A DNA stretch of 64,000 nucleotides from Bacilli bacterium (GCA_045589955.1 JAZNQD010000009.1:118814-182813), one strand, 5' to 3'. Shown: positions 14,429-25,168, numbered from the stretch's first letter. Notes: generated from the letters alone by a model not told the origin. Numbers and translations are program-made.

Positions 14429-15001
14429 TTAATCCGCGGATAATGTAACCGAATATCTACAAGGTTGAATTCTAAACGTATGTTTTATTACATTCATCAA
14501 ACTATTTATAATATCATTTACATCTTGAGCAGTATCTAAACGAAAATATAAATCTATATCGGCATCTAATATCTTAATAGAAGGATAAGTTGTATTGCCA
14601 GTGTAATAAACTAAATATTTATTAGTGTTAAATTGACTAACTGTAAAACAGAATTTGGTACTACAAAAAGAAACCATGTCGTTTATAAAATTAATAAATT
14701 CGCGTGGTGGAATATTCGTATTTAGTTTTGTATCCACTTTTATCGTTTTTAAGAAATTAGTCATATCAGTATCAATAGTGGCACCGGTAACTTTAGCAAT
14801 AGATTTTGTAATAGTGTGTGTACAATATCCGTTTACACCAGCTTTTTTACCGTTATTAGAAATAATCACTTTATTACTATATCCAGATTTAAATTCTGCT
14901 GGTAAAGAATTATATTTATTATCTACGTTTTGACAATTGGTTTTAGCGTAGTTTTTTACCAGATTAACTATTGTATTGTATGTAATATTTCCTATTGGCA
15001 T
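14429..15001 (-). CDS. family-B paralog (untailed) of the Ser-tailed proteins
   Basis: Starts MPIGNITYNTIVNLVKNYAKTNCQNVD...LPAEFKSGYS; paralogous to the 16988 ORF and to the N-terminal cores of the 15002 and 17529 ORFs. Its ATG directly abuts the stop of 15002..15691 (TAAATG). Confidence 0.6.
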   Translation of the reverse strand: MPIGNITYNTIVNLVKNYAKTNCQNVDNKYNSLPAEFKSGYSNKVIISNNGKKAGVNGYCTHTITKSIAKVTGATIDTDMTNFLKTIKVDTKLNTNIPPREFINFINDMVSFCSTKFCFTVSQFNTNKYLVYYTGNTTYPSIKILDADIDLYFRLDTAQDVNDIINSLMNVIKHTFRIQPCRYSVTLSAD

Positions 15002-15691
15002 TTAAATATCCATATAAGCAATAAATGTAGATGAACTAGAAGAACAGCTTGAGCTTGATGAAGATGAAGATGAGGAACTAGAAGAACTCGAACTTGAACT
15101 AGAATAAGTTAAAAGAGTATTTGCATAGTGAATGTTCGATGTGTTGTTAACAGCGGCAAGTAACTCATTTACACTAGTTTGTATTTCTGTTGCACTAAAA
15201 TCTATATCATCATGACGTAAAGACACTGTTGAAAAATTACTAGCGTCATCATCGTAAAAGATAAATGTTCCTGCCCCAAAACTATTTGTAACAGCAATCA
15301 ACTTAACAGCCAAAAAAGATGCAAAGTTATTATAAAAATTCATAATACCTTTGAAAGACACAATTTCAGTCGGTTTAGTTGCAATTCCACGTAATTTCAA
15401 AAAGGAATTAAGTTGATTTTTTACAGTAGATGTAGAAACAACTTGCAACTTTGGATCATTAACTTGAGAATGTTGAATTAATGTCTTGGTTGTACGGGTA
15501 AAGTTACTATTTCTACCACCTATGACAAAAGCCACGGCCGTTGTTTTATTATTCCAACTATATCCGTGTTGTAATTGTTTTGGTACATCACTTCTAAACT
15601 TATCAATATTACAGCATTTACTCAAAATATATGATTGAGCACTATCTAATAAATCTTGATAAGTAATTGTATTATTGCTCTTTATCGCCAT
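15002..15691 (-). CDS. family-A protein with C-terminal poly-Ser/Cys tail (putative modification substrate)
   Basis: 229 aa ending ...LTYSSSSSSSSSSSSSSSSSSCSSSSSTFIAYMDI. SD GAGGG upstream. N-terminal core shares the ITY...C.N.D...GYS pattern with the family. Confidence 0.7.
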   Translation of the reverse strand: MAIKSNNTITYQDLLDSAQSYILSKCCNIDKFRSDVPKQLQHGYSWNNKTTAVAFVIGGRNSNFTRTTKTLIQHSQVNDPKLQVVSTSTVKNQLNSFLKLRGIATKPTEIVSFKGIMNFYNNFASFLAVKLIAVTNSFGAGTFIFYDDDASNFSTVSLRHDDIDFSATEIQTSVNELLAAVNNTSNIHYANTLLTYSSSSSSSSSSSSSSSSSSSCSSSSSTFIAYMDI

Positions 15692-16400
15692 TAAAAAGTC
15701 CCTCTAAAAAGCCATCTAATAAAGTTACAGAGACAATACTCTTGCTTTGTAAAGCAATGATACATTCAATAGCATTATCTAAGTAAACACATTCTTCTGT
15801 AGAAAACTTTTCGGATACAGAAAAAATACCAGAAAGAGTTAACAAATCAGTTGACATGAAAATTGTACGATAAATCTTAGGTAATGGAATATGCGTATCT
15901 AACGGTGTATAAGTTGTTTTATTATAAGATTTAAACAACGAAATGAAATAAATACTTAACTGACGAATAAATTTGTTTAAACTAGATTGTAATTCAAGTT
16001 TTAAATCTAACAAATCTTCAATAGATGATACATAAATATTTTCATCATCAAAAAAGTCATCTTCTAAAGTATTATACAATTTAATCAAGTTAATAATATT
16101 CAAAATCATCAATGGATCACACAAATCTTCACGATTCATTGACATTTCGAAAATTCTAACCAAAGTTTCAAGTTCAACACCTTTAAGGAATAATTTAACA
16201 TTATTTCTTGCAAGTTCCGTTAACTCTGTTTCTAAACAATAAAGCTTTTCTAAAAATGGTATAATATCCATAACTTCAACGTATTTATCTACTCTAATTT
16301 CAATAAATTCATTTTCAGCAAAAGAAATTCCTTTAGTTCCTTCAACTAAAGTTTTAATATCATCACGAATTGCTTCATAGTTACGTAAATTTTCAGTCAT
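15672..16400 (-). CDS. hypothetical protein
   Basis: 242 aa. Strong SD AAGGAG. Confidence 0.5.
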   Translation of the reverse strand: MTENLRNYEAIRDDIKTLVEGTKGISFAENEFIEIRVDKYVEVMDIIPFLEKLYCLETELTELARNNVKLFLKGVELETLVRIFEMSMNREDLCDPLMILNIINLIKLYNTLEDDFFDDENIYVSSIEDLLDLKLELQSSLNKFIRQLSIYFISLFKSYNKTTYTPLDTHIPLPKIYRTIFMSTDLLTLSGIFSVSEKFSTEECVYLDNAIECIIALQSKSIVSVTLLDGFLEGLFNGDKEQ

Positions 16401-16447
16401 AAAAGCTCCTTTTTATAAATATCTAATGCTTATGTATTTAGAACTAA

Positions 16448-23585: not shown

Positions 23586-24481
23586 ACGGTTTATCTATAA
23601 TGCCCTCTTTATATTGTAACTATAACTGTGAGTATTGCTATTTAGGGGATTTAAGAAAAAACAAAACTCTTTTAGATTTAGATATACTCGCTAATCGTTT
23701 AAATGAAATAACACAAAACTATACAATTCAACATACAACTTTATATGGTGGTGAAATATCTCTATTACCACAAACATACTTAAATGATTTATTGCAACTT
23801 GTAAAAGATTATAATCCAGCGTTTGTAACAAATTTATCCCAAGAATGGTTTTTAAATTACTGCTTAATAAACAATGTTAAACTTAGTATATCGTTAAATG
23901 AAGAAAGAACCAATTACAATAAAACGTTGCAGATTCTTAAGACGTTAAAAGGTATTAAATCAATTTGTTTATCTGTTGTTGTTTTACCTAGTTTACTAAA
24001 GAAAGATTCTTTTGAAATTCTAGATTTTTTTGAAGATTTAGGGTTTGATGTTATTTTTATTCAATATCACCCTTCTATTCATTCTAAAGTCGTTTATAAT
24101 ATCACAACAAAAGATTACAGTGATTTTTTATTACGTATCCTAAAAGCTAAATACGAACGCGACTACAAATTCAAAATACAAAATGAGATTGTGCTTAGAG
24201 ATACAACATACCGAGCAACGGCTGACAGTTTTATGTTTATTAATCAAAATGGTAATTTCAGTTCAATTAAATATAACGAGAAAGAAGAAGAATATTTCGT
24301 AGAATTTAATACTTTACAAGAATGGAAAGACTTTTGTAAGCAAGAACAAAAACTATATTATACAAAGTGTCATGCTTGTAAATATTATAATAAATGTAAA
24401 GCTGAACATTTAGTCAATCTAGAAAAAGATAATTGTTCAGGTCTATATAATTTATTAGAAGAATATTCACAAATTGGATAA
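23573..24481 (+). CDS. radical SAM / SPASM-like protein (paralog of 3157..4059)
   Basis: LYCNYNCEYC, YGGEISLL, C-terminal CHACKYYNKC...CSGLYNLL. SD AGAGGA. Confidence 0.75.
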   Translation: MELLNGLSIMPSLYCNYNCEYCYLGDLRKNKTLLDLDILANRLNEITQNYTIQHTTLYGGEISLLPQTYLNDLLQLVKDYNPAFVTNLSQEWFLNYCLINNVKLSISLNEERTNYNKTLQILKTLKGIKSICLSVVVLPSLLKKDSFEILDFFEDLGFDVIFIQYHPSIHSKVVYNITTKDYSDFLLRILKAKYERDYKFKIQNEIVLRDTTYRATADSFMFINQNGNFSSIKYNEKEEEYFVEFNTLQEWKDFCKQEQKLYYTKCHACKYYNKCKAEHLVNLEKDNCSGLYNLLEEYSQIG

Positions 24482-24487
24482 CAAGAG

Positions 24488-25168
24488 ATGACTGTAACAA
24501 CTGGACAACTTATCGTAAAAACTAGTCGTGATTCATTAGTCGGTGCAATAAATGACTTTAACGATAGAGTGACAAATGCAATTTATAATCAAGTTGCATA
24601 CAATTCTTCAACGTATCCTTATTTTTCTGGATCGGTGACTTATGGTACAACAGGTGCATCATCAGTAGAAGCATTTGTAAATCCTATTGCTATTCCATCT
24701 GGTCAACTCGCTGCTGTTGATACACGTCCTACATGGTCAATCGGTGATACTATAATTACTGCCTCTACACTTTGGAATAATATGTTATCTATTACTAAAA
24801 CTCTCATAAAAATAAGAGGTTTTACTGCAAATTGGTATCATAGAACAGATAGTACAGATAATTTAAAGCAAACAATAAATAGTGTTGGATTTTTTAATTT
24901 AAGTTGGCCAGCAGTGCCCACAGGTACATTAACTGCAGCTACAGCAACATCAAATTGGACCAGAACAGGAACCTTAAATCCTACACTTTCTCCTGCAACA
25001 CAAATTACATCGGGTGCAACAGCTACAGCCGCTACAATGAATAATACTATTCAAAATTGTTATAATGCTTGGAAAACAAATTGCCTTGACAGTAGAGTAG
25101 TATATAATTTTTATACTTGTCATCAAAATTGTCATAGTAGTTGTCATAGTAGTAGAGGACGTAGATAA
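24488..25168 (+). CDS. family-A-like protein with Cys/His/Ser-rich C-terminal tail (putative substrate)
   Basis: Starts MTVTTGQLIVKT...; family A of 17529 starts MSLATGQTIKYK... The body is T/S/A/N-rich. It ends ...NCYNAWKTNCLDSRVVYNFYTCHQNCHSSCHSSRGRR. Confidence 0.55.
   Translation: MTVTTGQLIVKTSRDSLVGAINDFNDRVTNAIYNQVAYNSSTYPYFSGSVTYGTTGASSVEAFVNPIAIPSGQLAAVDTRPTWSIGDTIITASTLWNNMLSITKTLIKIRGFTANWYHRTDSTDNLKQTINSVGFFNLSWPAVPTGTLTAATATSNWTRTGTLNPTLSPATQITSGATATAATMNNTIQNCYNAWKTNCLDSRVVYNFYTCHQNCHSSCHSSRGRR

Follow-up and report, generated by a model that had tools for sequence, protein, structure and literature searches.

Radical S-adenosylmethionine (radical-SAM) enzymes of several described systems are relevant to the locus reported here. 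YydG is the radical-SAM peptide epimerase of the Bacillus subtilis epipeptide system and acts in hydrophobic or aromatic stretches. The NHLP/Nif11 proteusins (e.g. polytheonamide) are long-leader precursors for peptides made on the ribosome and modified after translation (RiPPs), with multiple radical-SAM tailoring enzymes, and QhpD is a radical-SAM/SPASM enzyme forming intra-protein thioethers in QhpC, the small subunit of quinohemoprotein amine dehydrogenase. On the phage side, tail-fibre tip adhesins of the gp38 type (T-even, S16) have polyglycine-rich domains. HxsB/HxsC, a pair of radical-SAM enzymes, mature HxsA, a folded protein that carries a short repeat region and acts as a protein rather than as a released peptide (PMC13128918); the maturation of a folded protein by radical-SAM enzymes thus has a precedent. 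Here we describe a stretch of 64,000 nucleotides assigned to a Bacilli bacterium (GCA_045589955.1 JAZNQD010000009.1:118814-182813; hereafter the window), in which two gene pairs, A1/B1 and A2/B2, and a further open reading frame (ORF), 24488 or C, lie among radical-SAM genes.

The window holds two copies of one conserved phage A/B cassette. A and B are read here as a folded phage protein pair, probably tail-fibre-associated, whose Ser/Cys tail would be matured by the adjacent radical-SAM set; we give this reading a little less than an even chance. No description of the A/B family or of either cassette described below was found in the literature.

The A/B family and its Ser/Cys tail

The two pairs lie on the minus strand and comprise the following genes; E-values are those of a family hidden Markov model (HMM) built from ∼123 database relatives of A/B.

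17529-18209, minus strand: A1, tailed member, 226 amino acids (aa), E = 2e-66; folded core at residues 1-193, Ser/Cys tract at residues 194-218 (17556-17630), cap TFIAYMDI (17532-17555)
16988-17527, minus strand: B1, untailed paralog, 179 aa, E = 1e-47
15002-15691, minus strand: A2, tailed member, 229 aa, E = 3e-66; tract at 15029-15103, cap TFIAYMDI at 15005-15028
14429-15001, minus strand: B2, untailed paralog, 190 aa, E = 8e-57

The B1 start codon was found 1 nt past the stop codon of A1, and that of B2 directly abuts the A2 stop codon. A1 and A2 are 44% identical (E = 7e-41), B1 and B2 47%, and A2 and B2 23% (E = 2e-11). When the whole window was scanned, the family HMM matched exactly these four proteins, with E-values from 1e-47 to 2e-66. 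A sequence-only reading of this DNA had proposed a five-member paralogous family with an ITY...C.N.D...GYS core, the fifth member being ORF 24488. All five ORFs are present where it placed them, with the termini that it quoted. The paralogy holds for the four A/B genes (pairwise E of 2e-11 to 7e-41) and the core pattern is real in them, but 24488 is separate by every sequence test.

A profile search retrieved 390 family representatives (clusters at 50% identity) at E≤1e-3, 246 of them at E≤1e-10. Searches of A, B, C and two accompanying proteins, X and Y, against Pfam, PHROG and NCBIfam gave only noise and no family match. The AlphaFold2 model of A1 had a predicted local distance difference test (pLDDT) score of 88 overall, above 90 in the core and ∼51 in the tail, which is disordered; the folded core with disordered tail for which the sequence-only reading had suggested a structure prediction was thus obtained. 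Each protein is predicted to form an alpha/beta fold of ∼180 residues, and the confident model of the core matched no known fold. Type B ends straight after the last strand.

The family was located in ∼30 phage contigs of 38-313 kb from IMG/VR, ENA and JGI, and including two contigs binned into a Succinivibrionaceae metagenome-assembled genome (MAG). The genes always form an adjacent pair, either A then B or two tailed copies. A genome scan with alignment A5 found two contigs only, both in that one MAG; since they are probably phage contigs caught up in the binning, the hint at a Succinivibrionaceae host is weak. The exact sequences of B1, B2 and C were seen in the protein collection, in clusters of 18-26 members. 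Those of A1 and A2 were absent, the nearest A1 cluster having three members, one of them truncated; compared with their neighbours, the tailed genes seem more variable from strain to strain, or less well assembled or called.

Tail statistics were obtained from 64 representatives with <50% mutual identity. Their tracts contained S 1105, C 210, T 5, P 1 and N 1, that is >99% Ser+Cys, and ran to 9-30 residues, with Cys biased toward the tract start. The tract is followed by an eight-residue cap, x-F-I-[A/G/V]-[Y/F]-M-x-[I/L], which is the protein end in most members. The cap residues F, I, Y and M each occurred in at least 44 of the 64 sequences; position 4 can be Gly, and position 7 is highly variable. 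The junction between core and tail reads ...Y-[ST]-[SC]..., with no Gly-Gly or other conserved cleavage motif. In several lineages B also bears a Ser/Cys tail. The Cys-containing tails noted in the sequence-only reading are as it described them: a 25-residue Ser/Cys tract plus TFIAYMDI in A1 and A2, and TCHQNCHSSCHSSRGRR in 24488.

Both A copies of the window have the identical cap, and their tracts use five to six different Ser codons in mixed order. Over the last 17 codons, A1 and A2 show 6 synonymous and 0 non-synonymous differences. Because the Ser codons are mixed and only synonymous changes occurred in this segment of proteins that are 44% identical overall, the tail is selected at the protein level. 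An origin of the poly-Ser tract as a microsatellite artefact of the DNA was rejected because of the mixed codons. A C-terminal sorting signal of the sortase/CTERM type was also rejected: the cap has only eight residues, and there is no transmembrane segment and no basic tail.

Radical-SAM linkage and tail-fibre context

In every locus found from the family, the pair was followed by 3-8 radical-SAM genes, starting within two genes downstream. In the reverse search, starting from the radical-SAM enzyme of the type encoded at 7760, a family member was present within 10 kb in 27 of 28 loci, and the exception ends at a contig edge. Because the tailed pair constantly precedes radical-SAM genes, the tail is probably chemically rebuilt; the association in both search directions supports the earlier suggestion that the C-terminal tails resemble modification substrates. 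Gene clustering defined a conserved cassette of Y, A, B, 4-7 radical-SAM genes and a ∼340-aa protein; as in the window, two modules are present in several genomes. The other genes of the minus-strand arm of the window are as follows.

16448-16975, minus strand: X, 175-aa accessory protein kept in five related loci; no Pfam, PHROG or NCBIfam match
15672-16400, minus strand: Y, 242-aa protein found upstream of the A gene in 15 of 20 loci; no family match
13542-14408, 12619-13542, 11709-12626 and 10759-11706, minus strand: four YydG-like radical-SAM genes with CxxxCxxC and weak Pfam Radical_SAM matches
9713-10762 and 8689-9720, minus strand: two paralogous ∼340-aa proteins, kept in 13 loci (alignment A7)
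3157-8686, minus strand: distal arm, with radical-SAM genes at 7760-8686, 6260-7219 and 3157-4065 (Pfam matches and orthogroups)
7206-7763 and 4062-4664, minus strand: proteins of unknown function in the distal arm
4624-6255, minus strand: NodU/CmcH-type carbamoyltransferase (NodU E = 2e-40; Pfam E = 1e-56 and 2e-31)

The minus-arm enzymes share CxxxCxxC, GGE, TSYDxxGRF and a C-terminal CGH...CxxCD (alignment A6). The best PDB match of the A6 profile was YydG (E = 4.6e-9), over profile positions 3-174, which cover the radical-SAM core only; viperins came next, with weak matches restricted to the N-terminal region. At least four old, non-redundant orthogroups can be distinguished among the radical-SAM genes, in an order that is conserved across loci. 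For TIGR04078 (rSAM_yydG; cut-off 300 bits), the sole match was the plus-arm enzyme 23573-24481 with 27.6 bits, and the three scanned minus-arm enzymes were unmatched. No peptidase, exporter or RiPP recognition element (RRE) protein was found by Pfam, PHROG and NCBIfam among the scanned genes of the window and locus L002 or in the conserved gene clusters.

The ∼340-aa proteins had weak NCBIfam matches only (E∼0.02), to a cysteine desulfurase family and glycine C-acetyltransferase, and no match in PDB or Pfam. DDVHGMF and TAH[AS] motifs were seen in them (also in the protein at 13026-14015 of L002), with no obvious Schiff-base lysine there; we take these motifs to be reminiscent of pyridoxal phosphate (PLP) fold-type-I enzymes. 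The ∼340-aa protein is possibly a degenerate member of that class, and the two copies may be pseudo-enzymes or a new enzyme of this pathway. The carbamoyltransferase lies inside the radical-SAM arm and was found in only 3 of 20 cassettes; it might conceivably O-carbamoylate tail serines. In the 63-kb phage of L031, the pair was followed not by several 300-aa radical-SAM proteins but by a single one of 661 aa (10686-12671), which may be a fusion of two enzymes.

Tail or tail-fibre PHROG matches were found just upstream of the pair in L002, L020, L025 and L028, and in L031 Laminin_G_3 genes lie on both sides of it. At 2174-3472 of L029, a locus syntenic with the minus arm of the window, a B core continues into a Gly-rich domain that scores 42.6 bits for PF12810 (cut-off 24.5). 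Neither A nor B showed homology or a fold match to known virion proteins. Because of the tail-fibre neighbour genes and the fusions to Gly-rich adhesin-type domains, A and B probably belong to the tail-fibre/adhesin apparatus.

Fusions of type-B cores to Gly-rich domains of 180-250 residues (PF12810 ALK_LTK_GRD, PF21722 Gly_rich_2) were observed in L029, P0006, P0055 and P0077, the fusion point being the exact site of the type-A Ser/Cys tail. In L062, a 640-aa protein (6442-8364) has the family core and a Ser/Cys tail behind repeats resembling leucine-rich repeats (LRR; called by eye). Upstream of its gene, and separated from it by two short ORFs, lies that of a 1359-aa protein (245-4324) with long Ala/Ser/Cys-rich repeats (AATAADTARSCSAS...), which by eye is fibre-like and has a C-terminus resembling an S74 intramolecular-chaperone domain.

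The region 3157-27862 consists of two divergent operons that meet at 18210-18274 (no strand), an AT-rich gap of 65 bp in which TATAAT-like hexamers were seen on reading the sequence. About 16 radical-SAM genes were counted in this single phage locus, spread over both operons: seven YydG-like genes in the minus arm and seven in the plus arm, most with SPASM-like motifs, with the two 340-aa genes counted separately. The window itself is phage-like, with 28% G+C, and encodes GroEL, portal and prohead-protease-like proteins and an SbcC-like ATPase. GroES/GroEL are at 34308-36302 (GroES assigned by synteny with L006), and the two prohead-protease-like proteins are at 31661-32362 (ClpP-like, 233 aa) and 47730-50519 (929 aa, protease-like in the N-terminal region). 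Its relatives are metagenomic Caudoviricetes lacking annotation. Megablast with 14000-26000 and tblastn with A1, C and the first radical-SAM enzyme gave no match in 50,697 phage records; as far as these comparisons go, no cultured relative with an A/B cassette appears to be among them. A lead from the literature on radical-SAM genes of a Campylobacter phage was dropped, no connection to the window being found.

ORF 24488 and the plus-strand cassette

The plus-strand operon comprises three parts.

18275-24481, plus strand: 138-aa protein (phrog_20737), then six radical-SAM genes, the majority having a SPASM-like motif, Cx2Cx5Cx(2-3)C
24488-25168, plus strand: C, 226 aa, own family; tail TCHQNCHSSCHSSRGRR at 25115-25165
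25169-27862, plus strand: unknown proteins of 237 and 334 aa, then a radical-SAM/SPASM gene (26882-27862); kept in L006, L011, L018 and L021

The motif Cx2Cx5Cx3C was found in 20394, 21389, 22500 and 26882, and a near form of it in 18657 and 19601. The protein of 26882-27862 scored 30.1 bits against TIGR04085 (SPASM; cut-off 27), and the other plus-arm enzymes had weak matches to assorted peptide maturases. The C family has 21 homologs with invariant C191, C199, C211, H212, C215 and R223/R225/R226, and the conserved C-terminus reads NCYNAW..C....Y.FYTCHxNCHSxCH..RGRR. The AlphaFold2 model of 24488 had a pLDDT of 81.5 and a disordered tail. A scan of viral_contigs with ORF 24488 gave no match. 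The plus-strand cassette is conserved in L006, L007 and L008, in the latter two without A/B. In L007, resolvase/MerR-like and IS605 OrfB/TnpB genes were seen inserted at 11428-13162, after the 240-aa gene behind C, and this insertion cuts off the distal part of the C cassette, made up of a 266-aa ORF and a radical-SAM gene.

The five ORFs had been read as one common scaffold. By sequence, the 24488 family is unrelated to A/B: BLASTP gave E = 0.76, the family HMM E = 2.9, and hhalign, with one or both sides as profiles, probabilities of 0.8-2.9%. A very remote structural homology that would still unite all five was considered, since in hhalign the N-terminal 9 residues and the last helix and strand are co-linear with family A (and nothing else is), and the AlphaFold2 models of A1 and 24488 share a loosely similar order of helix, beta-hairpin, helix, strand and disordered tail. 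We regard it as unlikely in view of these scores, the occurrence of the C cassette without A/B in L007 and L008, and the pairing of 24488 with a different, SPASM-type radical-SAM set. The proposal that the tail of 24488 is a modification substrate fared better: the gene stands at the end of a block of six SPASM-type radical-SAM genes of its own, which is kept elsewhere. ORF 24488 is an analogous candidate substrate of a second, independent SPASM-type radical-SAM cassette.

Interpretation and comparison with known systems

In the mechanism that we propose, A and B probably act together as a pair, and the poly-Ser/Cys tail would be the substrate of the downstream radical-SAM enzymes, with the terminal octapeptide serving as a recognition handle or being modified itself. 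Hydrogen-atom abstraction from Ser/Cys or cap residues would lead to epimerisation and/or thioether-type links, and the folded phage protein, made in an anaerobic host, would thereby gain an appendage of altered chemistry that resists proteases. The family, the composition of its tail, the gene linkage, and the neighbourhoods and fusions were observed directly; we infer the enzyme-substrate relation, the partnership of A with B and the virion location, and can only guess at the type of chemistry, for which epimerisation and/or thioether links would be the nearest precedents. It is possible, though rather doubtful, that phages of anaerobes possess a dedicated radical-SAM pathway that rebuilds the poly-Ser/Cys tail of a tail-fibre-associated protein into a non-proteinogenic appendage. 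Such an appendage might contain D-residues, thioether or ether links, or serines oxidised, aminated or carbamoylated via the PLP-fold-like protein and the carbamoyltransferase. The second cassette (24488 plus the SPASM-type enzymes) would do likewise to a Cys/His tail.

Several observations weigh against maturation of the tail by these enzymes. The tails in L009/L011, L026 and L027 are free of Cys; therefore Cys-based cross-links are not universal chemistry, and the invariant features are the poly-Ser tract and the cap. Tail length differs among close relatives, P0001 having a 16-residue deletion, and P0216 shows an S-to-G change; such variability in length would be expected of a linker no less than of a repetitive substrate. 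The module of the window is flanked by radical-SAM genes only, with no fibre gene adjoining. As to the enzymes, their similarity to YydG is confined to the radical-SAM core, all their NCBIfam matches are far under the cut-offs, and the minus-arm enzymes, in which CxxxCxxC begins at about residue 15, have no recognition domain of the RRE type at the N-terminus.

The tail might accordingly be thought of as a flexible hydrophilic linker with a C-terminal docking peptide, for example a strand inserting into B or a fibre protein, and sharing a late operon with a radical-SAM array that does something else, such as small-molecule synthesis or the modification of DNA or of a different site. Besides its variable length and the dispensable Cys, the hydrophobic, strand-like cap, identical in both copies of one genome, would suit this explanation, as would the weak viperin-like matches of the enzymes over their N-terminal region. 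Small-molecule or nucleobase pathways are the typical setting of a PLP-fold-like protein and a carbamoyltransferase, and radical-SAM and PLP enzymes reportedly take part in phage thymidine hypermodification. However, Gly, Thr, Asn and Pro would be acceptable in a neutral linker, whereas the tract is >99% Ser+Cys in hundreds of diverged proteins, and the linkage to radical-SAM genes is reciprocal and near-obligate in phages of 63 to 313 kb. No nucleotide-metabolism gene was found within the conserved cassette, and among solved structures the enzymes come closest to a peptide epimerase. Taken together, we consider a mere linker unlikely. Less likely still is that the cap (F-I-A-Y-M-x-I/L) is the real core, cross-linked and excised as in the pyrroloquinoline quinone (PQQ) and mycofactocin pathways, with poly-Ser as a spacer to a carrier domain. 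The cap is more conserved than the tract, the several non-redundant radical-SAM orthogroups suggest a multi-step pathway, and MftC and PqqE use C-terminal Tyr-containing cores. But the peptidase and other accessory enzymes typical of PQQ and mycofactocin pathways were not found, the cap admits Gly at position 4 and is highly variable at position 7, and neither a spacer made of Ser and Cys only nor the tail-fibre context would be explained; the chance of this explanation is very small.

The sequence-only reading had viewed the ∼190-residue part as a large leader and the untailed copies as possible immunity or decoy partners. In its full form this would be a classical RiPP, in which an oversized leader is cut from the tail (with or without the cap), the tail is released as the core, and B is a helper or immunity protein. 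The candidate precursor genes do stand first in the radical-SAM operon, the tail is disordered and contains Cys biased to the N-terminal part of the tract, like sactipeptide hairpins, and long-leader precursors of the NHLP/Nif11 kind are known. The supposed leader, however, is the best conserved part and a folded domain (pLDDT >90), which elsewhere is fused to Gly-rich adhesin-type domains or LRR-like repeats, without the tail or besides it, and occurs in tail-fibre neighbourhoods. No conserved protease or ABC/PCAT exporter and no RRE protein was identified in the scanned genes (window, L002) or conserved clusters, the core-tail junction has no cleavage motif, and pure poly-Ser tails occur. 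Nor do the untailed copies resemble immunity or decoy proteins: B is the obligate back-to-back second member of the pair and bears the same Ser/Cys tail, or a Gly-rich domain, in several lineages. A released peptide is thus improbable, although less so than a cap-derived cofactor.

If the tail of a folded, probably tail-fibre-associated phage protein is indeed matured by the adjacent enzymes, RiPP-style radical chemistry would extend to folded phage proteins, probably parts of the virion. No viral structural protein would have been known before to undergo RiPP-like maturation, and serine repeats would be the target of a new post-translational chemistry. A purpose would also be given to ∼16 radical-SAM genes that, in a phage genome of 249 kb, take up ∼15 kb. 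A protein family with no known fold and hundreds of diverged members would be defined, and a new modification of serine repeats indicated. Even with ordinary chemistry, the cassette can serve as a marker, clean and widespread, for the genomes of a group of large metagenomic phages, some of them human-associated.

Compared with precursors of sactipeptides, ranthipeptides and epipeptides, A/B likewise have adjacent radical-SAM maturase genes, but instead of a short leader and core, a folded domain of ∼193 residues precedes the A tail, and no leader peptidase or exporter was found in the scanned genes. The closest enzyme relationship is to the YydF/YydG system. As in B. subtilis, the gene of the candidate substrate is placed immediately upstream of the enzyme gene, and the A cap is a hydrophobic/aromatic stretch like the target regions of YydG. 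YydF, however, is a 49-residue peptide with one maturase, while here a folded pair of 180-230 residues is accompanied by 4-7 distinct radical-SAM enzymes, and the C-terminal CGH...CxxCD motif is specific to the minus-arm enzyme family, unlike YydG. The NHLP/Nif11 proteusins resemble A/B in having a large N-terminal domain, a short modifiable C-terminal region and several radical-SAM enzymes in the cluster. They differ in that A/B show no nitrile hydratase or Nif11 homology by Pfam, no Gly-Gly site and no PCAT exporter, and the N-terminal domain of A/B is also fused to adhesin-type domains in a phage tail-fibre context.

For 24488, the tail segment CHQN-CHSS-CHSS can be read as three C-x3 units and contains H-S-S twice, which recalls the CXXX-repeat and HXS systems, respectively. 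The plus arm does not fall within the CXXX-repeat system (TIGR04115), as 21389-22507 scored only 22.3 bits against a cut-off of 350. No NCBIfam match, and thus no HxsA-type match, was obtained for 24488; the HxsB/HxsC matches of the window enzymes reached 23-35 bits against cut-offs of 268-370, and HXS is a bacterial antiphage defence system, not phage-encoded. The resemblance of some B members to gp38-type tip adhesins lies in an N-terminal domain followed by a C-terminal Gly-rich domain, encoded beside fibre genes; it is one of layout, not of core sequence or fold, and the B proteins of the window have no Gly-rich domain. QhpC/QhpD are unrelated proteins, with a single maturase and a bacterial periplasmic enzyme as product, but they would share with the A/B cassette, by analogy, radical-SAM cross-linking in a protein subunit and not in a peptide.

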